This document shows positions 7,427 to 63,707 of a stretch of DNA of 64,000 nucleotides, in pieces. A model generated the notes under the pieces. That model saw nothing but the letters and a program-made list of their open reading frames with translations, had not been told where the DNA came from and made no database searches. Both the position numbers and the translations under genes were made by a program. Source of the stretch: Candidatus Ozemobacteraceae bacterium (GTDB lineage Bacteria > Muiribacteriota > Ozemobacteria > Ozemobacterales > Ozemobacteraceae); NCBI GenBank assembly GCA_965140445.1, contig OZ223236.1, positions 3,586,498-3,650,497 of the forward strand, in the 5' to 3' direction. How positions within the stretch are numbered: the first letter of the stretch is position 1; each line of letters begins with the position of its first letter.

Positions 7427-9379
7427 ATGTCATCCAACAAGACTTACTACATCACCACCCCCCTCTATTATGCTAATGACGAGTTGCATATAGGACACGC
7501 ATTCACAACATTGGCCGCAGACATAGCTAGCCGTTTCCAAAGATCAATGGGAAATGACGTGTTTTTCTTAACAGGTTCTGATGAACACGGGCAAAAAGTT
7601 GAACAGGCTGCAAAGAAAAGAGGCATTACTCCAATCCAGCATACCGATGAACTCGTTGCCAAATTTGAAAATCTTTGGGAAAAGCTCAACATCACCCATG
7701 ATGATTTCATTAGAACAACTCAGGATAGACATAAAGACGTTGTAATTCATATTTTAAACAAGCTTTACGAAAAAGGTGACATTTATTCATCTAACTACAG
7801 TGGCTGGTATTGCACACCATGTGAAAGATTTTGGACGGAAAAAGAAGTTCCAGAGAAAATTTGCCCTGATTGCTCAAGAGAAGTTCAGCAGATTGAAGAA
7901 AAAAGCTACTTCTTTAAAATGTCCGCCTATCAGGAAAAACTGATTGATTACATTAATAATACGCCCGGTTTTATCCGACCTGAAAACAGAAAAAATGAAG
8001 TGTTGGGCTTTTTAAAACAGCCTTTAAACGATCTTTGCATTTCCAGACCAAAATCCAGACTTGAATGGGGCATAGAACTCCCATTTGATAAAGATTTCGT
8101 CACTTATGTCTGGTTTGATGCTCTTACGAACTACATTTCAGCAGCCGGCTACAATTCTGATGCTGATAAATTTAAAAATCTCTGGCCAGCAAACTGCCAG
8201 ATCATTGGAAAAGACATTTTAACTACCCATGCAGTTTATTGGACAACAATGCTCATGGCTCTTGACCTTCCACTCCCGAAAACCATCTTTGCTCATGGCT
8301 GGTGGGTTTCAGCTGGCGGAAAAATGTCTAAATCAGTTGGAAACGTTATAAGTCCACTTGAACTTGTGGACAAATATGGACTTGATCCATTTAGATTTTA
8401 TCTTTTCCGTGAAATGGTTTTTGGCATGGATGCCAGCTTTACTGAAGAAAATTTTATCTTCAGATACAATGCTGATCTTGCTAATGACTACGGAAACCTT
8501 TGCCAAAGAACCCTGCCTTTGCTATTGAAAAATCGGGAAGGAAAATTCCATAAGGCCGCTCCCCAATTGATTCAATCAAAAGAAATCGTTCAAATGGCTG
8601 CGGAAGTGAAAAAAGATTACATTGAAGCAATGGAAAATTTCCTTTTCCACGAAGCACTGAAACGAATCTGGGATCTAATCCAGCGCTTAAATAAATATGT
8701 TGATGAAACAGCTCCATGGGCGCTTGCTAAAGCCCAGGAGTTCGATAAGCTTGATGAAGTTTTCTACACCATAGGTGAAGGAATCCGATTTTGCTCACAT
8801 CTTGTAGAGCCGTTTATGCCTGGACTTGCTCCTAAGTTTTTTGAACAAATTGGCTGGACCAAGGGCTTCATAAAACTTCCAGAACTTGAATGGGGTCAGT
8901 TAGAAGAAGGAACTGTATGTATTCAACCGACACCTTTGTTTCCAAGATTAGAAACAAAGCGCATTCAGGAGCTGAAATCCGGCAAGAAATCAACTGATAA
9001 AGCAGCTGAAAAGGCTGCTGCCAAACCTGCTAAAACTCCGGAAAACACAGAAGGAATTATCTCTTTCGATGATTTCCTTAAAACGGAACTTTGTGTTGCA
9101 AGAATTGAAACTGCTGAGAAGCATGAAAATGCAGATAAATTGTTGAAGCTTACTGTTTCAATTGGCGAAGAAACAAGAAGTCTCGTGGCTGGGATTGCAG
9201 ATTATTATTCACCAGAAGAGCTTATCGGGAAACAGGTAGTAATGGTTAAAAACCTGAAACCAGCCAAGATAAGAGGAACAGTTTCCCAGGGAATGATCCT
9301 GGCGGCGCAAACTGAGGACGGTGGATTGGCACTTGTAACTCCTGACAAACCAGCCAAAGTGGGAATAAAAGTCAAATAA
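7427..9379 (+). CDS. metG: Methionyl-tRNA synthetase with C-terminal tRNA-binding (EMAP/Trbp111-like) domain
   Basis: HIGH motif (ELHIGHAFT), KMSKS, the CPDC...CxxC zinc knuckle, and a C-terminal OB-fold tRNA-binding tail. Confidence 0.95.
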   Translation: MSSNKTYYITTPLYYANDELHIGHAFTTLAADIASRFQRSMGNDVFFLTGSDEHGQKVEQAAKKRGITPIQHTDELVAKFENLWEKLNITHDDFIRTTQDRHKDVVIHILNKLYEKGDIYSSNYSGWYCTPCERFWTEKEVPEKICPDCSREVQQIEEKSYFFKMSAYQEKLIDYINNTPGFIRPENRKNEVLGFLKQPLNDLCISRPKSRLEWGIELPFDKDFVTYVWFDALTNYISAAGYNSDADKFKNLWPANCQIIGKDILTTHAVYWTTMLMALDLPLPKTIFAHGWWVSAGGKMSKSVGNVISPLELVDKYGLDPFRFYLFREMVFGMDASFTEENFIFRYNADLANDYGNLCQRTLPLLLKNREGKFHKAAPQLIQSKEIVQMAAEVKKDYIEAMENFLFHEALKRIWDLIQRLNKYVDETAPWALAKAQEFDKLDEVFYTIGEGIRFCSHLVEPFMPGLAPKFFEQIGWTKGFIKLPELEWGQLEEGTVCIQPTPLFPRLETKRIQELKSGKKSTDKAAEKAAAKPAKTPENTEGIISFDDFLKTELCVARIETAEKHENADKLLKLTVSIGEETRSLVAGIADYYSPEELIGKQVVMVKNLKPAKIRGTVSQGMILAAQTEDGGLALVTPDKPAKVGIKVK

Positions 9380-10164
9380 TGAGAACAAGACGGATTATTG
9401 ATGTGCATGCACATCTGCAAGATGAAAAATTTCTTGATGACCAGTCTGAAGTTATACAAAGAGCTAAAGAAAGCGGTGTAGTAGCAATAATAAATGCGGG
9501 CACCTGTGTCGAAAGCTCTCGACAAGCGCTATCAATCAGTGAAAAGTATGATTCATGCTTTTCACTGATTGGAATACACCCGCACGATGCTTCAAGTTTT
9601 AATGAAAATTCTGTTGCAGAAATTTCTCAAATGCTTGAGCATAAATCGGCACTTGCTGTTGGAGAAATTGGTCTTGATTACCATTACGACTTTTCTCCGA
9701 GGGAAAAACAAAAACAGGTCTTTAAAACTCTTTGGTTGCTTGCCGCTGAAAAGCAGCTTCCAGCAATAATTCATATTAGAGAAGCTTTTGATGATTTCTT
9801 TGAAATTATAAAAAACATACCTCATCCACCAAAGGTCATGCTCCACTGCTTCTCTGGAGACTCTAAAATCGCTGCCAAAGCTGTAGAATTAGGATTTTAT
9901 TTTTCAATAGGTGGACCTTTAACCTTTAAGAATTCTCAAGAAACCAGAGATACCTTTAAAACCATTCCTATTGAAAGAATCCATCTTGAAACAGATTGCC
10001 CATATCTAGCACCAGTTCCCAAAAGGGGAAAAAGAAATGAACCGGCTTATATACAGCATACCTTTGCAGCAATGGTTCAACTTAGAGAAATGTCAGATTC
10101 AGAGCTGGAATCCCAATTAATTCAAAATTCCAGAGACTTTTTTGGTTCTAAATTGGAGATTTAA
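9379..10164 (+). CDS. tatD: TatD-family metal-dependent hydrolase/DNase
   Basis: N-terminal IDVHAHL, an internal HxH and a C-terminal ETDCPYL motif. Its start overlaps the metG stop. Confidence 0.85.
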   Translation: MRTRRIIDVHAHLQDEKFLDDQSEVIQRAKESGVVAIINAGTCVESSRQALSISEKYDSCFSLIGIHPHDASSFNENSVAEISQMLEHKSALAVGEIGLDYHYDFSPREKQKQVFKTLWLLAAEKQLPAIIHIREAFDDFFEIIKNIPHPPKVMLHCFSGDSKIAAKAVELGFYFSIGGPLTFKNSQETRDTFKTIPIERIHLETDCPYLAPVPKRGKRNEPAYIQHTFAAMVQLREMSDSELESQLIQNSRDFFGSKLEI

Positions 10165-27319: not shown

Positions 27320-27889
27320 CTATTTTTGAATTTGTGGATCATATCTTAACTCAAGCCTTCCTGATGAAATCAGTGTTCTAAATTTAGATATGTCATTTCC
27401 TTTTAAAAACAAGTCCATAAAAAATTTTCTGGCATTTGGCTCAATCTTTGAAAATGGTGGCTTTGGTTCTATTGAAACCCCACCTACCTTTTGATCCCGG
27501 TCAAAATACATGGTTAAAACATATACCGATAGATTCATTTTGCTATATTTTCCAAATGCATATGAGTAATCTTTTGCCCCGTGATTTCTTAACACCCTTT
27601 CAACATCCCGAATTTTAAGACCAAACAATCCAATATTTTCAATTGGTGCTTTTAAATGGTTATCCATAAATGGATCATAAACTGGAATTCCATTAAACTT
27701 TACCCCTGTAGATTCAGATGCAACAGGTTGTTTTGGATCTTCAGTTTTTGAGGAAGCTGGAGTTTCAGTTTTTTCTCCCCCTGGAGCTGTAGGAGTTGCA
27801 AAGAAATTTTTCATCTGCGCAAAGCCAGGTGAAATGATGAAAAACAGATAAATAAAAATTATCCAAAAAATGTTAAGCTTTCTTTTCAT
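27320..27889 (-). CDS. Hypothetical secreted protein
   Basis: 189 aa with a signal peptide MKRKLNIFWIIFIYLFFIISPGFA. I recognise no family. Confidence 0.4.
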   Translation of the reverse strand: MKRKLNIFWIIFIYLFFIISPGFAQMKNFFATPTAPGGEKTETPASSKTEDPKQPVASESTGVKFNGIPVYDPFMDNHLKAPIENIGLFGLKIRDVERVLRNHGAKDYSYAFGKYSKMNLSVYVLTMYFDRDQKVGGVSIEPKPPFSKIEPNARKFFMDLFLKGNDISKFRTLISSGRLELRYDPQIQK

Positions 27890-27948: not shown

Positions 27949-28401
27949 ATGAGTTTACCGGGAAAAATAATTGAAGTAAACAGCAACCTTGCTATAGTAG
28001 AAGTCAGTCCAAAACCAGAATGTACAGGGTGCCATGCATGTCAGGGTCTATTAGGTGGAGAAAAAAAGTCTTCACTAAAAAGAATTGAAGCCTTTATTGA
28101 TGATGTCGTTCCAGAGCCAGGAGACGAAGTGATTCTTGATACCAAACCAGGTGAAGGAAGCATCGCCGCACTTTTAGTCTTTGGTCTGCCAATGCTATTT
28201 TTCTTCGTGGGACTATTTCTAGGTCCTCAAGTTTCTCTTTATCTGGGCTTTTCTGCTTCAGATTCAACCAGATTAATAACGGGCTTTATTTTCATGGCGA
28301 TTTCATTTGCCATCCTGGCAGGGGTTTCTAAAACAAAATTTGCCAGAAGTATAAGCCTAAAGGTTACTAAAATAACCAAAAGTGCCAAAGAAAGTAGATA
28401 A
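27949..28401 (+). CDS. rseC: RseC/MucC-family (SoxR-reducing-system-associated) membrane protein
   Basis: N-terminal cysteine cluster CTGCHAC followed by two TM helices. Located immediately downstream of the rnf operon, as is common. Confidence 0.65.
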   Translation: MSLPGKIIEVNSNLAIVEVSPKPECTGCHACQGLLGGEKKSSLKRIEAFIDDVVPEPGDEVILDTKPGEGSIAALLVFGLPMLFFFVGLFLGPQVSLYLGFSASDSTRLITGFIFMAISFAILAGVSKTKFARSISLKVTKITKSAKESR

Positions 28402-28703
28402 AAAAAATCCCTGGATCAAAAAGCCAGGGAAAAAGTGAGAGGATCTTTTGAGAGGATACTTGAGTCATCTGGGGAGATGACATAAGATATTAAAAAGTGT
28501 TCTCCGAATCATAAAATAATTTCTTGATTAATCATGGGACAAACTTCAGTGATTTTTGCTGTGATTGTAGTTTATCTAAGGCTTTAACTATATTTTGAGT
28601 GTTTCTTTTAAAAAAATTTATAAGTTCGTTAGTATTTGCTTTATAACAGTATTTTCATACATTAACGATCCGGAAAACACATTTTTACTTTTTCAAAGAG
28701 CTA
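28402..28703 (-). ncRNA. Candidate sigma-54-dependent small RNA, paralog 1 (about 300 nt), bounded by a -24/-12 promoter and an intrinsic terminator
   Basis: Minus-strand promoter TTGGCATCGAAATTGCT (GG-N10-GC). Conserved 5' block, a variable core, a conserved 3' hairpin (gucauc-N6-gaugac) and the AUCCUCUCAAAAGAUCCUCUCAC motif. Terminator hairpin tccctgg/ccaggga followed by a U8 run. No ORF of 60 aa or more. Confidence 0.5.
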
Positions 28704-28714
28704 TTTATATTAGA

Positions 28715-28729
28715 GCAATTTCGATGCCA
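28715..28729 (-). promoter_or_regulatory. Sigma-54 (-24/-12) promoter of sRNA paralog 1
   Basis: Reverse complement reads TGGCATCGAAATTGC with a GG-N10-GC spacing. Confidence 0.55.
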
Positions 28730-28870
28730 ACTTTTCATTTTTATAAATTGATCTCCAAACCATTATAAAAAGTGATAAACTCGCAATTTTCGCCAATTTG
28801 AACTTATTATACGAATGTGCACTTTTTTTTATGGTGGATTTTAGCACACACATAAGCTTCTAATTTGACA

Positions 28871-29178
28871 AAAAAAATCCCCGGTCAAAAAGCCGGGGAC
28901 AAAGTGAGAGGATCTTTTGAGAGGATACTTGAGTCATCTGGGGAGATGACATAAGATATTAAAAAGTGCTTTCCGAACCATGTTATAAATTTTGGTGCGT
29001 TTGTTATTGTGAATAATTTGTAGCTTTTTCGTATATATTAGGTTGTTTTAGAGGATGTATTCGGTTATTTCGATTCAATAGTTATTCTGTGAATTTTGCT
29101 TTTTCGTTTATTTTGACCCAGCACTGTTAATACTGCAAACGATCCGGAAAACACATTTTTACTTTTTTCAAAGAGCTA
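28871..29178 (-). ncRNA. Candidate sigma-54-dependent small RNA, paralog 2 (about 300 nt)
   Basis: Minus-strand promoter TTGGCACGACAATTGCG, a near-perfect sigma-54 consensus. Shares the conserved 5' and 3' blocks of copy 1. Terminator hairpin tccccgg/ccgggga followed by a U-run. Confidence 0.5.
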
Positions 29179-29189
29179 CCCCTACATAC

Positions 29190-29204
29190 GCAATTGTCGT
29201 GCCA
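29190..29204 (-). promoter_or_regulatory. Sigma-54 (-24/-12) promoter of sRNA paralog 2
   Basis: Reverse complement reads TGGCACGACAATTGC, matching the consensus TGGCACG-N4-TTGC. Confidence 0.65.
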
Positions 29205-29363
29205 ACAAAATTCCTTTTCTGTTTTTGTGATGTTTTCTGCTTACAAGCCTTGTGTAGAGACGTTTCACCTGGAAACAAACAAAATAGTATGTGCTTTTTT
29301 TTACAATGTTGTATTTTCACACCCACACTTGGAAACACCTATAAATTTATAACTTACAAATCA

Positions 29364-29676
29364 AAAAAAAATCCCCGGTTTAAAAAAAGCCGGGGACAAA
29401 GTGAGAGGATCTTTTGAGAGGATTCGGGAGTCATCTCCTGAGAGATGACCAATTTATGAAAAGAGCTTTCCGGATCATGCTGTAATTTCTTCTTAACTTA
29501 TACTGTTACTTATTGTGAGGGGAGGATCGACCATACTATAGTTAGGAGAGGATGTTAAGCTATGAGCAGTAAGTCTATTGTAAGAGTATCAAATACTGTG
29601 AATAATAATGTGAACCAGTAACAACTTATACTGTAAACGACCCGGAAAACTACTTTTTACTATTTTCAAAGAGCTA
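29364..29676 (-). ncRNA. Candidate sigma-54-dependent small RNA, paralog 3 (about 310 nt)
   Basis: Minus-strand promoter CTGGCATAGGAATTGCA (GG-N10-GC). Shares the conserved 5' and 3' blocks. Terminator hairpin tccccgg/ccgggga with a longer loop, followed by a U9 run. Confidence 0.5.
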
Positions 29677-29687
29677 CTTAACTATAT

Positions 29688-29702
29688 GCAATTCCTATGC
29701 CA
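29688..29702 (-). promoter_or_regulatory. Sigma-54 (-24/-12) promoter of sRNA paralog 3
   Basis: Reverse complement reads TGGCATAGGAATTGC with a GG-N10-GC spacing. Confidence 0.55.
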
Positions 29703-29943
29703 GCTTTTTTTTATCATTTTTAGCTAATTTTAGGGCATTTCCTTTGTTAACTTTTTTCACCAGTGTTTTTTTTTCACACTCAAAAACAAGCTTCCACACC
29801 CCTATTTCAACACGACATGCATTTTTTGTCAACTACTTTAGGTTTTTTAAAAGTTCTACTTTGTTCTTTTTTTCACGTTCTCCGACGTGTGTGTTTTTTT
29901 TTCACCTTTATATTTTTTCCCCATTAGGCTATATTGCATTCAA

Positions 29944-31866
29944 ATGAAAAAGATAATCCTTTCCGCAATCAACTCAAAGCACACTCACGCTTGTCTGTCG
30001 CTGGCAACTTTAAAAGCTTATCTTGAAAAAAACACATCAGATTTAACCGCATCAATTTTTGAATTTGATTTAAACCAAAACATTGATTCCATTTTTGCTG
30101 AGCTGGTGAGAATCAAGCCTGATTTTTTAGCCTTTTCTACCTACATATGGTCCTTTGAGACCATAATAGAAATTTCTGGCGCTATTAAGTCAGCCTTTCC
30201 ACAGATGAAAATTTGCCTAGGAGGGCCCGAAGTAACATTTCAAGCCGAATCCATTTTGCAAAGATTTCCATGGATTGATTTCATAATAAGAGGCGAAGGA
30301 GAAGAAACCTTTACCGAATTGCTTCTGAGCAATTTTGAGCTTGATGATCTCCTGAAAATAGATGGTTTAAGCTTTCAAAATAATTCTAAAATATACAGCA
30401 ATAATGACAGGAAACTTATTGAAAACCTGGACGTAATACCCTCCCCTTTTGAGCTTGGCATCTATAAAAACGGGAAAGGTTACACATATTACGAAGCATC
30501 AAGGGGTTGCCCCTCTAAATGTTCCTATTGCTTAAGTTCCGTATTGGGCAAGTTGCGCAATTTTTCCATTAATAGAGTTAAAAAGGATTTGGATTGGTTT
30601 TTCAATTCGGACTATGAGCAAATAAGGTTTTCTGATAGAACTTTTAATTTTGATAAAAATAGAGCGAAAAAAATTCTTAATTACATTCTTCAAAATAACG
30701 TTCAAAAAAAGAACTTCCATTTTGAAATTCAAGCAGACATTCTGGATGAAGAAATAGTCGAACTTCTAGCAAGTGAACCGCATGGGATTTTCCATTTAGA
30801 GATTGGAATTCAAAGCTTAAACCTGAAAGCCCTTGCCGCTGTAAATAGAGCTTGCAACCCTCAAAAGCTTGAAAAAATGATTATTTTCCTTAGGGATCAC
30901 ACTAGATGTCATCTTCACCTGGATTTGCTGGGCGGTCTCCCGGAAGATACCTACCTCCAATTCAGGGAAAGTTTTAACAAGGTTTGGAATTTTAAACCTA
31001 ACTGTATTCAGGTTAGTTTAATTAAAGTGCTTCGCGGAACCCCTTTTGAAAATGAAGTAAAAACCAACAGGGTTTCCTGCATGCCAACCCCTCCTTATAC
31101 TCTCACCAGGACTCTTTGGATGTCCCCTGAGGAACTCATTAGGATTCAGGAAATTGGAAAGCTTGTAGAATCAATTCGAAACTCGGAGAGATTTACAATT
31201 TCATTGCACTACATAACTGAAAATATTTATCAAAATAATGCGATTGAATTCTTCGAAGATCTTCTTGATTATTGGTTAAAAATGTCTTTTCTTAATTTTG
31301 GAATGAATCCTCGAACCATTAAAGAGCGCCTTGTGAGCTTTTTAATCCATAAGTTTCCTGAGCATCCAAAAACTAAGGAACTGGAAACCCTTTTTGACCA
31401 TGAGCTTCAAATGAGCCTGCGATCGCCTTCAACAGAATTTTCTTCTTCCCCAGATTTCCCGGACTCCAAAATGAAGGATTATCCATTCAAAGTTCTTCCT
31501 TCATTAAAAGTAATCTGGCAAAAGCACAATATCGAAAGTCTAATCTCAGACCAGGATAAAAATATTAAGGGAAATTACTTTCCGACCTTGTATTTCTTTG
31601 AAAAAAATCCTGCCTTAAAAAACAAAACTGTGCATTTAGAGCTCCCCTTAATTGAAAAATTCACAATCAGCTCTGTTCTTAAAAAACTTTCAACCGATCA
31701 AATGGCTCGGATGTGCCTCCAACTCTACGATTGGGAAATTCTTCCAGACCATTTTGAAAAGGTGCTTGAAAACCTTTGTCAAAGAGGATTAATATATAAT
31801 CTCAATGTAAAAAGCTTTGATGAAATTAAGGACTATATTCCTGAAGAAATCCAAACACAAAGGTGA
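29944..31866 (+). CDS. B12-binding domain-containing radical SAM protein (DUF4080 C-terminal extension)
   Basis: N-terminal cobalamin-binding-like domain and a radical SAM CxxxCxxC motif (GCPSKCSYC). True start is the ATG at 29944 (MKKIILSAIN); the track ORF starts earlier, at 29887. Confidence 0.8.
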   Translation: MKKIILSAINSKHTHACLSLATLKAYLEKNTSDLTASIFEFDLNQNIDSIFAELVRIKPDFLAFSTYIWSFETIIEISGAIKSAFPQMKICLGGPEVTFQAESILQRFPWIDFIIRGEGEETFTELLLSNFELDDLLKIDGLSFQNNSKIYSNNDRKLIENLDVIPSPFELGIYKNGKGYTYYEASRGCPSKCSYCLSSVLGKLRNFSINRVKKDLDWFFNSDYEQIRFSDRTFNFDKNRAKKILNYILQNNVQKKNFHFEIQADILDEEIVELLASEPHGIFHLEIGIQSLNLKALAAVNRACNPQKLEKMIIFLRDHTRCHLHLDLLGGLPEDTYLQFRESFNKVWNFKPNCIQVSLIKVLRGTPFENEVKTNRVSCMPTPPYTLTRTLWMSPEELIRIQEIGKLVESIRNSERFTISLHYITENIYQNNAIEFFEDLLDYWLKMSFLNFGMNPRTIKERLVSFLIHKFPEHPKTKELETLFDHELQMSLRSPSTEFSSSPDFPDSKMKDYPFKVLPSLKVIWQKHNIESLISDQDKNIKGNYFPTLYFFEKNPALKNKTVHLELPLIEKFTISSVLKKLSTDQMARMCLQLYDWEILPDHFEKVLENLCQRGLIYNLNVKSFDEIKDYIPEEIQTQR

Positions 31867-32674: not shown

Positions 32675-34624
32675 TTAGATCTTCCCTGAATTAACAAATT
32701 CCTTAGCTTTTTCATTTCCCTGCATTGCTTCAAACTTTAGGACATCCCTAATTCTATTTCTCAATGAAGCCAACTTACTCTTTTCGTTTGGATTGGCATT
32801 AGAATAATAACTGAGAAATTCATCAGCTACTTCAAAATTGCCTTCTCTAATGCCATCAATTATAGAATCTACAATTAGATTTTCATTTTCAACAGTCTTT
32901 TGAAAGCTGAAATCCAGGCTAACTTCTTTTGAAGATTTTTCAACGTCATCGGTTTCTCCAAGAACAAGATTAATATCTTCTTCAAGTTCTGGCGCAGATG
33001 CTAACTCTTCAATCACAGATCTTGCTCTGGCTCTTGAAACGCTGCTCCTGCTTCGGCTGGTTGAACTTCTTCTGGCTGTAGTTGCACGTCGTGGTTTAGT
33101 AGATTTTTTCTTAGCAACCTTTTTTCTTTTCTTTGGAGCCGATTGGTTTGTTGGTGTAATAGAAAAGGAAAACTGTGCAGGCGGACACCCTTTGGCAAAG
33201 GCTGTTTCAACCTTCATGGTGTCTGGACCACTATTTACAACTACAAGCATCATTCTATCGCGTTCTCCAAGTTTTTCTGTTAACACCTGAGAAGCTTTAA
33301 ATTCTCGGATATTAAGCCATTCAACTGTAGGCTTAACTTTTTTTGAACTGTGGTACATTACTGCTGCAACATCAAATCTATTGCAATACTTGGAAGAATT
33401 TATTCGCTGACCATCAAATGTTACCTTGATATTTGAATCTCTTAAGCTTTGAGGGTTTATTAGCACAGCTTTTGAAGACCAACACTTCACATTGTCCCGG
33501 CCTGCAAAAGGAGCATTTGCAATTTTGATAGAGGGATTCAAAGCTAATTTCGCCAGAAATTTATCGTAGCCATAATCGCCGCCGCTAAAACTGCTGTCAT
33601 TTAAGAAGTTTGCTACACAGAAATTTCTAAAAATGTTTTTTGCACTGTTTTTTATTCGTTGTTTTTTTATAGCAGCATTCAACCCGGAAAGTCCCTGAGA
33701 AGTTTGCGCAACCATTCTTCGAACAAAAGCTTTCCTTCTCTCTACCGAATCAGATATGTGGGTGGAAATATAATATGCCCACAAATAAACCTGTCCATAG
33801 TTTGAGAGCATATCATCATTTGCCCATGCACAAAGATTGTTATCAGAATTTCTTATGAAAGCATGCACCTGAGGCGGGTGACCATAGCCACAAAGGAATG
33901 GAGCAAGCTGTGAAAGGCTTTCATTAACCCAGGTATATTCTTTAGGGTCATTGTTCCAGTGAACCATATGCTGAAATTCATGCGCAACAACACTTAAGAA
34001 TTTTTTATCGCCAGCAACTCCAGGATAAATATCAAGGTAAAGCATTTCTCTTTCATTGCTCTTGGGGTTTTTGCTGCGATTGTATTCATCTCCGGCATAG
34101 AAATATCCGGCTGTGAATCCCTTTTGTCCACGGTCTGGATTATATGTGTCTTTGATATCCATTAAAAGCAGAGTAATTTTGGGATCACCATCAATTCCAG
34201 GATTCCACTCCTCGCCAAACATGGAACGAACTTCTGGATAAATCTTTTTATCAAAGTCATCCACTATTTTATTGATTGCTTTTGCATCAACCTTACGTCC
34301 AGTTTCAACAAATACATAGCAATGTTTACCTATTTTTTTAAGCTGAGCTTTAATTCTTTCATGCCCATTTTTAGCAATATTAAAGGAGTTAAAAGATTCA
34401 ACATCACCAACTTCAACAGGTTTAGTATCAGCATATTGAACAAAGCCGCGAGTTCTAATACTGAATTCATCTTTGGATTCTTTCTGCACATTATCAGCCA
34501 ACCAGCTTACTTCTTCTTCAAACAAGTGGGTAGCATCAAACAGATCTTGTGCAAAAGCGCTGCTACAAGCACATCCAACAATGAGAATCATGGTCAGAAA
34601 AATGACCTTGACTGATTTTTTCAA
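32675..34624 (-). CDS. Secreted or lipoprotein zinc metallopeptidase (gluzincin-like HExxH...E) with a basic Ser/Arg/Lys-rich linker and a C-terminal domain
   Basis: Signal peptide ending in a lipobox-like VGCAC and the catalytic motif VVAHEFQHM...NE. The KKRKKVAKKKSTKPRRATTARRSSTSRSRSS low-complexity segment follows. Paralog of 34746..36584. Confidence 0.55.
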   Translation of the reverse strand: MKKSVKVIFLTMILIVGCACSSAFAQDLFDATHLFEEEVSWLADNVQKESKDEFSIRTRGFVQYADTKPVEVGDVESFNSFNIAKNGHERIKAQLKKIGKHCYVFVETGRKVDAKAINKIVDDFDKKIYPEVRSMFGEEWNPGIDGDPKITLLLMDIKDTYNPDRGQKGFTAGYFYAGDEYNRSKNPKSNEREMLYLDIYPGVAGDKKFLSVVAHEFQHMVHWNNDPKEYTWVNESLSQLAPFLCGYGHPPQVHAFIRNSDNNLCAWANDDMLSNYGQVYLWAYYISTHISDSVERRKAFVRRMVAQTSQGLSGLNAAIKKQRIKNSAKNIFRNFCVANFLNDSSFSGGDYGYDKFLAKLALNPSIKIANAPFAGRDNVKCWSSKAVLINPQSLRDSNIKVTFDGQRINSSKYCNRFDVAAVMYHSSKKVKPTVEWLNIREFKASQVLTEKLGERDRMMLVVVNSGPDTMKVETAFAKGCPPAQFSFSITPTNQSAPKKRKKVAKKKSTKPRRATTARRSSTSRSRSSVSRARARSVIEELASAPELEEDINLVLGETDDVEKSSKEVSLDFSFQKTVENENLIVDSIIDGIREGNFEVADEFLSYYSNANPNEKSKLASLRNRIRDVLKFEAMQGNEKAKEFVNSGKI

Positions 34625-34745: not shown

Positions 34746-36584
34746 TCATAATGAATTGATTTTATCTAACAAAGACTCCAGTTCTGCAAAATCTTGATTC
34801 TGTTGGAGATGAAAAGCTCCTACAGAGCTAGCCTGCTTTATTAGTGGTCTAACATTATTTTTATCCACATTGCCACTTTCGATTCCCTCTACTAATGACC
34901 TCAGTGAATCCAATTTACCATTTTCAAGCTCTTGCTTAATCTGCTCAGAAAATTTGTAGTTCAAACTTTCAAGATTGGTTAAAGCAATGTTTAGGGCAAC
35001 TTCATTTGAGCTATCCAAGCTAGCTGAGGTTCTAGAATAATTTTTAAGTAATTCCAGACTATCTACAGATGCAGCAATTCTTTCAACCTGCTCGCCCTTA
35101 TCGTTAAATTGGACAAAGTATTTCATAGCTGGAGCCTTGGCATAAGCTTTATCTGGAATACTTTCCGGAGCATGAGCAATAACTACAAGCTTTAGGCTGT
35201 CATAATCTTTTTCAATAGCAAATTTTAAAGAACCTGCCTGTAAATTCTTTCCATCAATTGGTGATATTTCAAGAAATCTAACAAAGGGTTTTGCTTTATC
35301 ACGCGAATTCATTAAAACAGCAGCAACCGTAAACGAATTGTATTTTCCTTCTGAAAATTTTGCTCTTGTTCCACCAAAAATTATTTCCATCTCTTCTTTA
35401 GCTGCTGAAAGATCAACATCTATGCAATCAGAGCTCCATAAAAACACCTCGTTCTGAACTTTTCCAGGGAAAGCTCTAACTTCTTGAGTTACAGGGAGTT
35501 TTAACCGACCAAGAGTTTTATCGTAATTATACAAATCATTTTCAGCAAGCTTCGGATTATTAACAAAGTTGGTAATCGCAAATTTATCAAAAGTGTCGGT
35601 AAACTTTGCTTTAAACTCTTTTAGTGCGGTTGAATATCCGTCAATTCCTTGCTTTTTGGAGTCGACAAGCTTTTTAAAGAAAACACCGGCTTTACTGTTG
35701 TCTCTTCCCAGAAATCGATTAAAAATGTAATAGTTCCAGAGATAAACCTGACCATAGTTAGCAAGCATTTGTTCCTGAGACCATGCAGTAAGACTATTGT
35801 CTGGAGTTTTCATGTATGATGTAATCTGGCTTGCGTGACCAAATCCACACAAATAAGGGGCTATCTGTGAACAAGCTTCATTAACCCAGGTATTTTCTTT
35901 GGGATCGTGGTTAAAATGAATCATGTGCTGAAATTCATGGGCAACTACAGCCATGTAGTGGTCTTTGGTTGGATCAGAAGGATTAATGTCCAGGTAAAAC
36001 ATTTCTCTTTCATTGGTTTTAACATCAATATTTGCTGGAATCTGAGACTGCATATACTCATCACCGGCAAAGAAATAGCCGCCAACGAATCCGCCTGAAC
36101 CGTTGTAACCGTCCTTGATATCAAACATCAGTAAAGTGATTTTTTCATCCCCATCAATGCCAGGTTTCCACTCAAAACCGAAACTGGAAGTATTTACCGG
36201 ATATATTTTTTCGTCAAATTCTTTCTGAATCTTTTCAATTGCTGCATTCGTAAGAGACTTTGTTTCTTCAACAAAAACATAGCAATGCTTTCCAATCGCT
36301 TTTAATATGGCTGGAGTTTTTTCAAACTTGTTTTCTTTGATGTTCTTTGTCCAGAAAACTTCTTTATCGCCAACTGTATATTTTTTTGGCTCTGGAGCTG
36401 GAGCTTTAACTCTTTTGGCATGCTCTTTACGAGTCTCAAGCTTTACATTGTCAACAAGCTTGGCAACATCAGCTTCAAAAATATGTGTAGCATCCATCCA
36501 TTGCGGTCCTACAGCGCTTGCGCTAACCGTGCCCAGCAAACTGACTCCAAGTAAAATTCCCAAAATTCTATTTGTTTTTTTCAT
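34746..36584 (-). CDS. Secreted zinc metallopeptidase, paralog of 32675..34624
   Basis: Signal peptide and the same VVAHEFQHM...NE catalytic block, collinear with the adjacent paralog. Confidence 0.55.
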   Translation of the reverse strand: MKKTNRILGILLGVSLLGTVSASAVGPQWMDATHIFEADVAKLVDNVKLETRKEHAKRVKAPAPEPKKYTVGDKEVFWTKNIKENKFEKTPAILKAIGKHCYVFVEETKSLTNAAIEKIQKEFDEKIYPVNTSSFGFEWKPGIDGDEKITLLMFDIKDGYNGSGGFVGGYFFAGDEYMQSQIPANIDVKTNEREMFYLDINPSDPTKDHYMAVVAHEFQHMIHFNHDPKENTWVNEACSQIAPYLCGFGHASQITSYMKTPDNSLTAWSQEQMLANYGQVYLWNYYIFNRFLGRDNSKAGVFFKKLVDSKKQGIDGYSTALKEFKAKFTDTFDKFAITNFVNNPKLAENDLYNYDKTLGRLKLPVTQEVRAFPGKVQNEVFLWSSDCIDVDLSAAKEEMEIIFGGTRAKFSEGKYNSFTVAAVLMNSRDKAKPFVRFLEISPIDGKNLQAGSLKFAIEKDYDSLKLVVIAHAPESIPDKAYAKAPAMKYFVQFNDKGEQVERIAASVDSLELLKNYSRTSASLDSSNEVALNIALTNLESLNYKFSEQIKQELENGKLDSLRSLVEGIESGNVDKNNVRPLIKQASSVGAFHLQQNQDFAELESLLDKINSL

Positions 36585-62216: not shown

Positions 62217-63707
62217 CTACTTTTTAGAAGATCTTTTTGCACTATCAATTTGTATCTTTTTTAGTTCTTCCTTGGAAATAGGTACACAAAATCTATTGTA
62301 TTCTCTTAAAGAGCCACATTGATTCGCAAACTCCAGATCAATGGTTTCTTTTTCCCAATTATAGCTTCCCTCTGCCTTGCCGAAAGCCTTAATAAACTTT
62401 AGCCAATGTTCTCCAGCAGCACCGATTTCAGCTCCTTTTGAACTAGAAATTGCAGCTACGGAAAGAATGCCAAAAGCATGATACCAAGGACCTATTTTAT
62501 CTCCAGTATGATCACCAGCTGGCCTAAGGTTTCGCAATTTTTTAACAATATCGCTATGCGGACGAAGCTTTTTCCTTAGCAAAAAGGCTTCTTTCATTTT
62601 TCCCTGTTTATTCCGTGCAAACATAGGGGTTAAACCATCGCTCCTCCCATTTTTTGCTGTTTCTTTTAAAACAGCATGGGCAGTTAATACAGCCAGTGGA
62701 TAGTTTCCTTTACATATGTCCAATGACTTTTTCATTACCTGAAAAGGCAACAAACTATCATCAGGAGAGTTTAAAATTTCTTGCCGAAGGGCTGCTTCCG
62801 TTTTCTCGGTTAGAGCTGCATAAATATTGGTCTTTCGATTTTCTGAAGGGATTTCATCCATTGCCATAAGCCTGGCAAGATCTCCAGTATCATCTTTCAA
62901 AAAGCCTTTAACCAGACCATCGTCAATATGTTTTTGTGTTTCATTTGGAACAACAAGCCTATTGTGAACACCAGGATAAGCCTTAACTGTTTTAACTAAA
63001 TTTCCAACACATGCTTTTATCCATCTTTCCCAGATAATTGGCGAAACACGCTTGTCCCAAACTCCTCGAAAATCCCTAAATTCCTCAATATCCTCAAGGG
63101 TCTTCGGGATATCTTTCTTTGAAATTGCAGCGCCCTGTAATTTTTCAATGGCCAAAACCGCAATCTTAGAAAAAATTTCTTTATAAATTGGCCATTTTGC
63201 TTTTAGATCGGTTTTATTTTTAAAAATGATTCTAAAATGGTATGCGTATTTTCCAACAATCCTGCCGTATTCTATAGAATCAGAACTACTAGAATGTTGC
63301 CAAAGTTTTTTTATTTCGAAACCTTTATCATCCTTGATTACTTCTAATTTCAATCCTTCACTCTTGTCATCATTAAAAAAATCCCAGAACCTTTCAACGG
63401 CATATTCTTCTCTTGCCGTGTGATAAGTAGGAAGAAATAAATGTATTTGAATGTGATCCTTGGCTTTTCCGCCAAAGTAAACGACTTCTAAAAGAGTATG
63501 AGACCTATGGGTAGTCTGAAAATTAGGTTTAATAGCAGATTCAAAGCCTTCAAACTCATCGGGAATGTTTAGATCTGCTATATCAATGTCATGCCCGGGA
63601 ATTGTGCCTGATTTATGAAATTGAGACCCGGCATAAAGCAAACTGTTACACAAAATCAGCAGGGTCAGGAAAATCCAGATTTTCCCCTTAAATAAATGTA
63701 TATACAT
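62217..63707 (-). CDS. Hypothetical secreted protein
   Basis: Signal peptide, 496 aa; I recognise no family. Confidence 0.4.
   Translation of the reverse strand: MYIHLFKGKIWIFLTLLILCNSLLYAGSQFHKSGTIPGHDIDIADLNIPDEFEGFESAIKPNFQTTHRSHTLLEVVYFGGKAKDHIQIHLFLPTYHTAREEYAVERFWDFFNDDKSEGLKLEVIKDDKGFEIKKLWQHSSSSDSIEYGRIVGKYAYHFRIIFKNKTDLKAKWPIYKEIFSKIAVLAIEKLQGAAISKKDIPKTLEDIEEFRDFRGVWDKRVSPIIWERWIKACVGNLVKTVKAYPGVHNRLVVPNETQKHIDDGLVKGFLKDDTGDLARLMAMDEIPSENRKTNIYAALTEKTEAALRQEILNSPDDSLLPFQVMKKSLDICKGNYPLAVLTAHAVLKETAKNGRSDGLTPMFARNKQGKMKEAFLLRKKLRPHSDIVKKLRNLRPAGDHTGDKIGPWYHAFGILSVAAISSSKGAEIGAAGEHWLKFIKAFGKAEGSYNWEKETIDLEFANQCGSLREYNRFCVPISKEELKKIQIDSAKRSSKK

Follow-up and report, generated by a model that had tools for sequence, protein, structure and literature searches.

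Three tandem structured RNA genes with predicted sigma-54 promoters, probably small regulatory RNAs of an undescribed family in Candidatus Riflebacteria

Several bacterial small RNAs (sRNAs) are encoded by genes under the control of sigma-54 and a response-regulator activator, namely GlmY/GlmZ, CrcZ/CrcY and the myxobacterial Pxr; tandem or duplicated genes are known for Pxr and CrcZ/Y. The Qrr sRNAs (Qrr1-5) of Vibrio carry a conserved seed of about 32 nt, while Yfr1 is a phylum-wide sRNA of cyanobacteria with an ultraconserved unpaired C/U-rich motif, ACUCCUCACAC (CUCCUCAC-type), lying between two stem-loops. Here we analyze a stretch of 64,000 nt from a Candidatus Ozemobacteraceae bacterium (contig OZ223236.1, positions 3,586,498 to 3,650,497), hereafter called the window, in which a 1.5-kb gap between two plus-strand genes, rseC on one side and a radical SAM gene on the other, holds three tandem minus-strand units of ~300 nt each, as seen by direct reading of the sequence. 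The results of our analysis indicate that these units are probably paralogous genes of an undescribed family of sigma-54-dependent, terminator-ended and trans-acting small regulatory RNAs that is wide in the candidate phylum Riflebacteria; from the motifs described below we infer their action in trans and a mechanism of anti-Shine-Dalgarno (anti-SD) pairing.

All three units have the same order of elements (table 1). The promoter sequence TGGCAY-N5-TTGC is followed after ~12 nt by a conserved 5' block, then by a variable stretch, a conserved 3' part of ~120 nt and the terminator. The 5' part reads AGCUCUUUGAAAA.AGUAAAAA...GUUUUCCGGRUCGUU, its initial block (consensus RGYUCWUUGAWAA) being kept across all subtypes of the family, whereas the middle domain of 150-190 nt is poorly conserved. 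The 3' part comprises AUGRUYCGGARA, the hairpin GUCAUC../..GAUGAC, the segment AUCCUCUCAAAAGAUCCUCUCACUUU and then a G+C-rich hairpin with U8-U9 (terminator U-tails of U7-U10 are present at every copy). A simple terminator scan detected copy 2 alone, since it allows loops of at most 8 nt and those of copies 1 and 3 are longer. The unpaired stretch AUCCUCUCAAAAGAUCCUCUCAC sits between the second hairpin and the terminator in each gene. No conserved open reading frame (ORF) is found between the copies, the 6-codon ATG frame of copy 1 being absent in copy 3. Each gene combines its own promoter and intrinsic terminator with a conserved unpaired seed and the lack of a conserved ORF.

A previous sequence-only reading of this DNA proposed that compensatory substitutions support the terminator stem and a long-range helix closing the 5' and 3' parts of each copy, which also has a second hairpin. 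The elements it described are all present at their coordinates, on the minus strand. The terminator stem is UCCCUGG/CCAGGGA in copy 1 and UCCCCGG/CCGGGGA in copies 2 and 3, a true double change from U:A to C:G, and the stem of the second hairpin (hereafter P2) is kept as GUCAUCU/AGAUGAC in copies 1 and 2, while copy 3 has 8 bp and another loop. It also holds that the 5' segment UUUCCGGAUC (28676-28667) is complementary to GAUUCGGAGA (28510-28501) in copy 1, and that its equivalents in copies 2 and 3 face GGUUCGGAAA and GAUCCGGAAA, respectively. The closing helix, hereafter P1, is nevertheless longer than described, extending over ~20 bp with one mismatch. The differences between the partner segments, which were reported to be all G/A, do all keep pairing, but one of them is a U/C change (G.U to G-C), and copy 3 alters the 5' strand too (A to G, giving G.U). 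The 10-bp segment is indeed wobble-compatible at all four variable positions, yet these changes are single-sided and do not represent double compensations, a point on which the earlier reading was overstated. One true compensation of P1 within the window lies in its extension, where U-A in copies 1 and 2 corresponds to A-U in copy 3. Minimum free energy (MFE) folds of copy 1 (-57.8 kcal/mol, z = -3.0) and copy 3 (-68.5 kcal/mol, z = -2.25) contain P1, P2 and the terminator. Because three paralogues alone are weak evidence for structure, relatives were collected.

When one genome of each species was scanned for the 19-mer CCTCTCAAAAGATCCTCTC, 66 loci were retrieved, corresponding to ~45 genomes by assembly-prefix count and nearly all labelled as Riflebacteria, Ozemobacteraceae or Rifleibacterium. 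These loci contain 76 family matches, and ~70 homologues were used for structure. Homologues of the radical SAM protein assign the window to Candidatus Riflebacteria (Rifleibacteriota). They include one near-identical contig at 99% (L001), which carries the same three sRNA copies, the next relatives being at ~50%; in one of the latter (L002) the corresponding interval from rseC to the radical SAM gene holds two copies, one of which has a P1 altered on both strands (UUUCCAGGCC with GGUCUGGAAG). With a covariance model restricted to the 3' module, called R1, exactly three matches are obtained in the window (table 1) and 74 in the genome loci. At least two large subtypes can be distinguished: type A-like RNAs, which include the window copies, are ~270-330 nt long, and type B RNAs ~210-230 nt. 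The R1 matches also include two divergent paralogues, which retain sigma-54 promoter, 5' block and P1: L048:3830-4213 (+) with an altered seed, UUCUCUCAAAAAAUCCUCUC, and L035:1750-2100 (+) with a single CCUCUC. The family is thus broader than the exact 19-mer suggests.

From alignment A2, built with MAFFT from 40 natural full-length type A-like RNAs, RNAalifold derives a structure that includes the long-range helix and the terminator, with double changes in 10 of 14 predicted pairs. When the structure is specified, changes on both sides are found in 12 of the 14 pairs of P1, which is the test with more homologues that the sequence-only reading had called for, as well as in 5/7 pairs of P2 and 3/7 of the terminator. 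Overall, 89.3% of cells are paired, versus 82.9% in shuffles and 30-63% in slid controls, and none of 500 shuffles attains the observed value on four of five measures. One pair of P1, for instance, occurs as GC in 15 sequences, AU in 14 and GU in 7, and its neighbour as UA in 20, CG in 12 and UG in 4. The alignment of the 3' module alone (A3, 34 sequences) has 91.3% of cells paired versus 80.3% in shuffles, and on four of five measures it is again matched by 0/500 shuffles; in this alignment the terminator pair that differs between the window copies is CG in 27 sequences, UA in 4 and AU in 1. Across the homologues of A2 and A3, 5-6 of the 7 pairs of P2 are changed on both sides, even if this hairpin is absent in lineages L005, L039, L047, L050 and L056.

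The same architecture is obtained when RNAalifold is applied to type B alone (12 sequences), with seven compensated pairs in P1. In this type P1 is formed from unrelated sequences, as in GGGUUCAAUUA/UAAUUGAGCCU, GGGUUUAAU/UUAAACCU, AGACUGAACUG/CAGUUCAGUUU and CAGGUUCA/UGAACCUG. An alignment-free swap test with RNAduplex on 13 sequence clusters gives a mean of -24.2 kcal/mol for the 5' segment of an RNA with its own 3' segment versus -12.8 kcal/mol for partners swapped between clusters, the own partner being best or near best in most clusters. The shuffle control takes no account of relatedness among the sequences; a purely phylogenetic artefact is unlikely because of the many independent sequence classes and the swap test. 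The proposal of a functional structured RNA with three helices is therefore borne out by ~70 homologues, which show changes on both sides in all three, and the structured-RNA reading is supported by compensatory changes beyond the controls.

The regulatory region of the genes provides elements that did not appear in the sequence-only reading, as did neither the invariant twin CCUCUC motif nor the phylum-wide spread. The pattern TGGCAYN5TTGC has three matches in the whole window, solely at the three copies, versus 0.35 expected, and has the -24 GG and -12 GC elements at the exact spacing of sigma-54 promoters (TGGCAC-N5-TTGC). Such a promoter lies 106-390 nt upstream of the family match, followed by the same 5' block, in 68 of the 76 family matches, while most of the eight matches without promoter are cut by contig ends. 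The three genes are consequently predicted to depend on sigma-54, with putative starts set by the usual distance from the -12 GC (~28702, 29177 and 29675). Further upstream, the motifs GTGAAAA and TGTGAAA are present in 43 and 34 of 62 distinct upstream regions, versus 1.6 and 1.4 in shuffles, and form two tandem dyads (~TGTGYG-N5-CRCACA) at ~-75 and ~-58 from TGGCA in types A and B alike; TGTGCGAAAATCGCACA and GTGTGAAAAAAACACAC are examples. Dyad symmetry, as in upstream activator sequences, is present in most loci and clear for copy 3 in the window. The tandem-dyad layout is that of sites for an enhancer-binding protein (EBP), implying one activator for the whole family. A search for the GAFTGA motif of EBP genes found just one case near a locus (L041, 6 kb away), so that the activator does not appear to be a neighbour gene; the L041 protein is of NtrC type (REC + Sigma54_activat + HTH_8), and this class is thus present in the phylum. 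Motifs resembling the activator sites also occur on the minus strand at 29860-29905 of the window (GGTGAAAAAAAAACACAC and CGTGAAAAAAAGAAC), where they precede the start codon of the radical SAM gene by 40-80 nt. Since L002 has the same motif arrangement, the same regulator may also act on this divergent gene.

Table 1. Coordinates of the sRNA genes, their predicted elements and the adjoining genes in the window
Feature	Position	Strand	Remarks
sRNA gene, copy 1	28702->28400	-	Predicted start (~28702) to end of U8 tail
sRNA gene, copy 2	29177->28870	-	Predicted start to U-tract
sRNA gene, copy 3	29675->29363	-	Predicted start to U-tract
Sigma-54 (-24/-12) promoter, copy 1	28715-28729	-	TGGCATCGAAATTGC; pattern match
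Sigma-54 promoter, copy 2	29190-29204	-	TGGCACGACAATTGC; pattern match
Sigma-54 promoter, copy 3	29688-29702	-	TGGCATAGGAATTGC; pattern match
Putative activator sites, copy 1	28815-28852	-	TGTGTGTGCTAAAATCCACCATAAAAAAAAGTGCACAT; degenerate, strict motif regex unmatched; weak
Putative activator sites, copy 2	29288-29324	-	GGGTGTGAAAATACAACATTGTAAAAAAAAGCACAT; ~-118, further upstream, more degenerate
Putative activator sites, copy 3	29752-29779	-	Tandem GTGTGAAAAAAAAACAC and GGTGAAAAAAG; ~-77 and -58 from TGGCA
Conserved 5' block AGCUCUUUGAAAA	28690-28702 (copy 1), 29165-29177 (copy 2), 29663-29675 (copy 3)	-	At predicted start
P1 closing helix, 5' strand	28665-28687 (copy 1), ~29139-29160 (copy 2), ~29637-29657 (copy 3)	-	
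P1 closing helix, 3' strand	28491-28512 (copy 1), ~28961-28982 (copy 2), ~29458-29479 (copy 3)	-	
P2 hairpin, copy 1	28464-28481	-	GUCAUCU-CCCC-AGAUGAC
Invariant twin motif, 19-mer CCUCUCAAAAGAUCCUCUC	28437-28455 (copy 1), 28906-28924 (copy 2), 29403-29421 (copy 3)	-	
Intrinsic terminator, copy 1	28400-28430	-	UCCCUGG-loop-CCAGGGA + U8
Terminator, copy 2	28870-28900	-	
Terminator, copy 3	29363-29398	-	
R1 match, copy 1	28399-28497		103.8 bits
R1 match, copy 2	28869-28966		104.2 bits
R1 match, copy 3	29363-29465		99.2 bits
Gene beyond rseC from the sRNA array	27320-27889	-	
RseC/MucC-family gene (rseC)	27949-28401	+	After rnfCDGEAB, plsY and a minus-strand 189-aa ORF
B12-binding radical SAM gene	29944-31866	+	DUF4080 domain

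The genomic setting of the family is conserved in two forms. In at least 30 loci, type A-like genes are flanked on one side by rnfB-plsY-ORF189-rseC and on the other by a group comprising the DUF4080 radical SAM gene, a zinc-ribbon gene and ygjP; at 13 or more loci, type B genes have a divergent hslO (Hsp33, PF01430) on one side and genes for FAD-dependent flavoproteins on the other. Both neighbourhoods are redox-related, which is a hint to the signal rather than evidence for it. An exact look-up of the RseC-like protein matched no record. Beyond the radical SAM gene, two adjacent minus-strand ORFs of 649 and 612 aa (32675-34624 and 34746-36584) have no Pfam match at E <= 0.001, and their equivalents in L001 appear frameshift-split. 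In L002, both sRNA terminators are followed by imperfect palindromic repeats (TTTCAACACATGCG...GGATGG..CGAGAGTCGTGTT; 8400-8570 and 9280-9400, minus strand), which are reminiscent of REP-like intergenic repeats; the window has none of them.

A few loci carry other labels. The sRNA is accompanied by the whole rnfB-to-ygjP set in L065 (label Methylomirabilis), by the zinc-ribbon gene and ygjP in L055 (label Avigastranaerophilus) and by rseC as the only neighbour gene in L038 (label Erysipelotrichia). Because each of these loci carries at least one gene of the Riflebacteria-type cluster, their labels are probably mis-assignments or binning errors. The sRNA occurs under the same labels, with no neighbour-gene matches, in L009, L046 and L051, and a 3.6-kb contig with a Pseudomonadota label (L017) has a variant seed. 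The 19-mer found in a Peptoniphilus sequence (L060) was rejected as a chance match, since it lies inside a coding region and has no covariance-model match.

As the genome scan had fixed the 19-mer, metagenomes were also searched independently of the seed, using the sigma-54 promoter and the 5' block as sole criteria. This search gave at least 120 loci; among the matches listed, 28 have the twin CCUCUC downstream, and all 28 have the identical 19-mer, at 182-292 nt from the promoter, while three more family members end at contig edges and the rest are unrelated sigma-54 promoters. The invariant block consists of two AUCCUCUC units, 13 nt apart, within a single-stranded stretch of ~30 nt; centroid folds leave this stretch unpaired in copy 1 and for the most part so in copy 3. 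Repeats akin to this motif recur in the middle domain (A2 consensus ATCCTCT), copies 2 and 3 carrying ACAUCCUCU, CAUCCUCUCC and GAUCCUCCCCUC.

The metagenome search also brought up elements of other kinds. In about 20 unrelated contigs (L069, L070, L086, L109, L111, L113, L122, L125, L136, L139, L143-L145, L149, L155, L165, L174, L179, L184-L186) the sigma-54 promoter is followed by a different conserved transcript start, GAUUCAUUGAUAAAAAAGUACCGAUAAAGCCAAACCACGAGCGAUCGUGGGACGGAAAGC, which has the appearance of another leader or sRNA driven by sigma-54 and belonging to other organisms. In L100, L128, L138 and L176 a sigma-54-like promoter is combined with UUCAUUGAAAA (GCUCUUUGAAAA in L138), and an apparent tRNA gene (e.g. 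GTAGCTCAACGGATTAGAGCA) begins ~20-30 nt further on.

Taken together, these elements can be arranged in a model in which an NtrC-type activator would bind the two tandem dyad sites ~60-120 bp upstream and drive sigma-54 RNA polymerase from the -24/-12 promoter. The resulting transcript of ~300 nt would fold so that the ~20-bp P1 helix between its 5' and 3' parts loops out the fast-evolving middle domain, leaving a compact 3' module of P2, the ~30-nt single strand with two AUCCUCUC units and the terminator. The twin C/U-rich, anti-SD-like motifs could then pair in trans with purine-rich mRNA sites, chiefly ribosome-binding sites, altering the translation or stability of the target mRNAs, and the extra AUCCUCU-like motifs of the middle domain may add to this pairing. 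Having several copies under one activator might make control graded or dependent on dosage, in the manner of the Qrr sRNAs. About half of the genes in the window have AGGA, GGAG or GGAGG ahead of their start codon, so that potential targets of SD type are available; CCUCU pairs with both GGAGG and AGAGG. Within the window, the minus-strand ORF 62217-63707 (496 aa, no Pfam match) has the SD sequence GGAGGAUCU, which pairs over 9 nt with AGAUCCUCU of the seed; it is possibly a target of the sRNA, a match not significant on its own.

Several results weigh against this interpretation. The invariance of the seed over 19-26 nt throughout the phylum is stricter than that of most sRNA seeds and might rather indicate a partner that is a protein or belongs to the ribosome. 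Searches for targets, which covered ~8 kb per genome, found exact complements of at least 10 nt to the seed at chance level in 560 kb of Riflebacteria DNA (20 versus 23.5 expected, two of the 20 being divergent paralogues), and duplex-energy scans returned G-rich noise or sites antisense to genes. RNAalifold, moreover, repeatedly pairs UCUUU(GA) of the 5' block with the linker (UC)AAAGA between the motifs, forming a helix, P0, which is also present in single-sequence MFE folds (UCUUUGA with linker UCAAAAGA) and which, if real, would partly mask the seed. This candidate helix is unproven: covariation cannot support it because both sides are fixed, one of its pairs is broken in 14 of the 40 sequences of A2, a G-to-A change in the linker of L048 is uncompensated, and L035 keeps the 5' block without the linker. 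The transcription start and the transcript itself are predictions, no EBP gene was found by the GAFTGA search in the window or beside most loci, and we know of no RNA chaperone in Riflebacteria.

The main rival to a pairing sRNA is a decoy that titrates a protein, in the manner of CsrB/RsmZ or CrcZ, with the AUCCUCUC units and the AUCCUCU-like motifs sequestering an RNA-binding protein or a ribosomal component. We consider this explanation doubtful, even if it would account for a motif block that is identical in 28/28 twin-motif members found independently, more strictly than is usual for pairing seeds, and for motifs of the same kind recurring in the variable domain. The failure to find an mRNA complement also agrees with a decoy, but weakly, since a small fraction of any genome was searched. 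Known sponges, on the other hand, have many binding sites and not two invariant ones per RNA, no bacterial protein recognizing CCUCUC is known to us, and one motif is altered or lost in the divergent paralogues, L048 and L035, although the rest of their RNA is kept. Because the twin block is invariant across the phylum, its partner may not be a set of mRNAs; an unlikely variant is that the partner is a universal component, either a conserved RNA-binding protein or the translation-initiation machinery, with the sRNA behaving as an anti-SD mimic. If this were true, the mimic would compete with 16S rRNA for Shine-Dalgarno sites and the family would be a sigma-54-triggered global brake or re-programmer of translation; a signal related to redox state or oxidative stress would then be suggested by its fixed places beside rnf/rseC and hslO (Hsp33).

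Action in cis appears very unlikely by comparison with the pairing sRNA. It could take the form of read-through of copy 1, antisense to rseC and into the gene at 27320-27889, or of control of the radical SAM gene through divergent transcription and shared activator sites, and is suggested by the place between rseC and this gene, kept in at least 30 loci, by the copy 1 terminator beginning 7 nt past the rseC stop codon, and by the extra GTGAAAAAAA-type motifs that precede the start codon of the radical SAM gene by 40-80 nt. Yet all copies end in a strong terminator with U7-U10, and direct reading reveals no complementarity to the seed in the start regions of the neighbours. Type B genes, furthermore, share seed, promoter and activator sites but adjoin hslO and flavoproteins, so that the conserved part is not tied to one neighbour. 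There is hardly any room left for an element acting at the DNA level, in which palindromic TCCGGA cores or repeats would be protein-binding sites or mobile, repeated DNA and the helices their by-products. The UUCCGGAA-like cores are self-complementary, which is why the 5' and 3' segments resemble each other, and 62.8% of cells remain paired in the control slid to -1. Against this, type B and other subtypes swap the palindrome for non-palindromic strands that remain complementary between 5' and 3' parts, the minus strand alone tolerates G.U pairs, the polarity of promoter, terminator and U-tail is always the same, and the loci are orthologous and syntenic instead of dispersed. The strand-specific G.U pattern and the non-palindromic, covarying P1 largely refute the DNA-level explanation.

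With regard to described RNAs, the whole window has no match in Rfam 15 at gathering score. The best sub-threshold resemblances are to ncS025 (27.6 versus 46 bits), suhB/mmgR (RF00519; 24.3 versus 41) and PrrF (23.6 versus 90), and they span the terminator and CCUC tract only; the Qrr model gives no match even at E <= 10, the seed here being CCUCUCAAAAGAUCCUCUC. A search of the literature on sRNAs or Rfam entries of Riflebacteria/Rifleibacteriota found nothing relevant, so that neither source yielded a regulatory RNA described for this uncultured candidate phylum, of which the retrieved records name no isolate. The family would thus offer a nearly complete predicted regulatory module, with activator sites, sigma-54 promoter, RNA structure and an invariant effector motif, at two orthologous genomic positions each beside redox-related genes. 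It may serve as a ready-made Rfam-type family for the annotation of metagenome-assembled genomes, and as a handle on a conserved signalling pathway of Riflebacteria, namely its activator, signal and targets.

Comparison with known systems indicates that the RNA family is new and the kind of regulator already known. The mmgR/alpha-r8 (RF00519), ncS025 and RsaE/RoxS RNAs also have unpaired C/U- or C-rich motifs beside the terminator that pair with ribosome-binding sites, but they lack the sigma-54 promoter and the P1 architecture. GlmY/GlmZ, CrcZ/CrcY and Pxr share no sequence or structure similarity with the present RNAs (no Rfam match) and have different seeds or motifs, GlmY and CrcZ acting mainly by protein titration. 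Yfr1 is closer in design, since the window RNAs likewise present a C/U-rich sequence, AUCCUCUCAC, between P2 and terminator; it is, however, only ~50-70 nt long, has a single motif, is not known to be sigma-54-dependent and gives no Rfam match here, whereas the window RNAs have a twin motif and a 5' domain closed by P1. The closest parallel is with Qrr1-5, whose paralogous genes also have a sigma-54 promoter each, sites further upstream at which one NtrC-type activator acts, an intrinsic terminator and a single-stranded seed that hardly differs between paralogues. This likeness is one of design and not of membership: the window RNAs are ~3 times longer, possess a long closing helix around a variable domain, belong to a different phylum and have putative activator sites resembling a TGTGYG-N5-CRCACA dyad, unlike the LuxO site. 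They would accordingly represent another case of Qrr-type multi-copy sRNA control, arisen in a very distant lineage.

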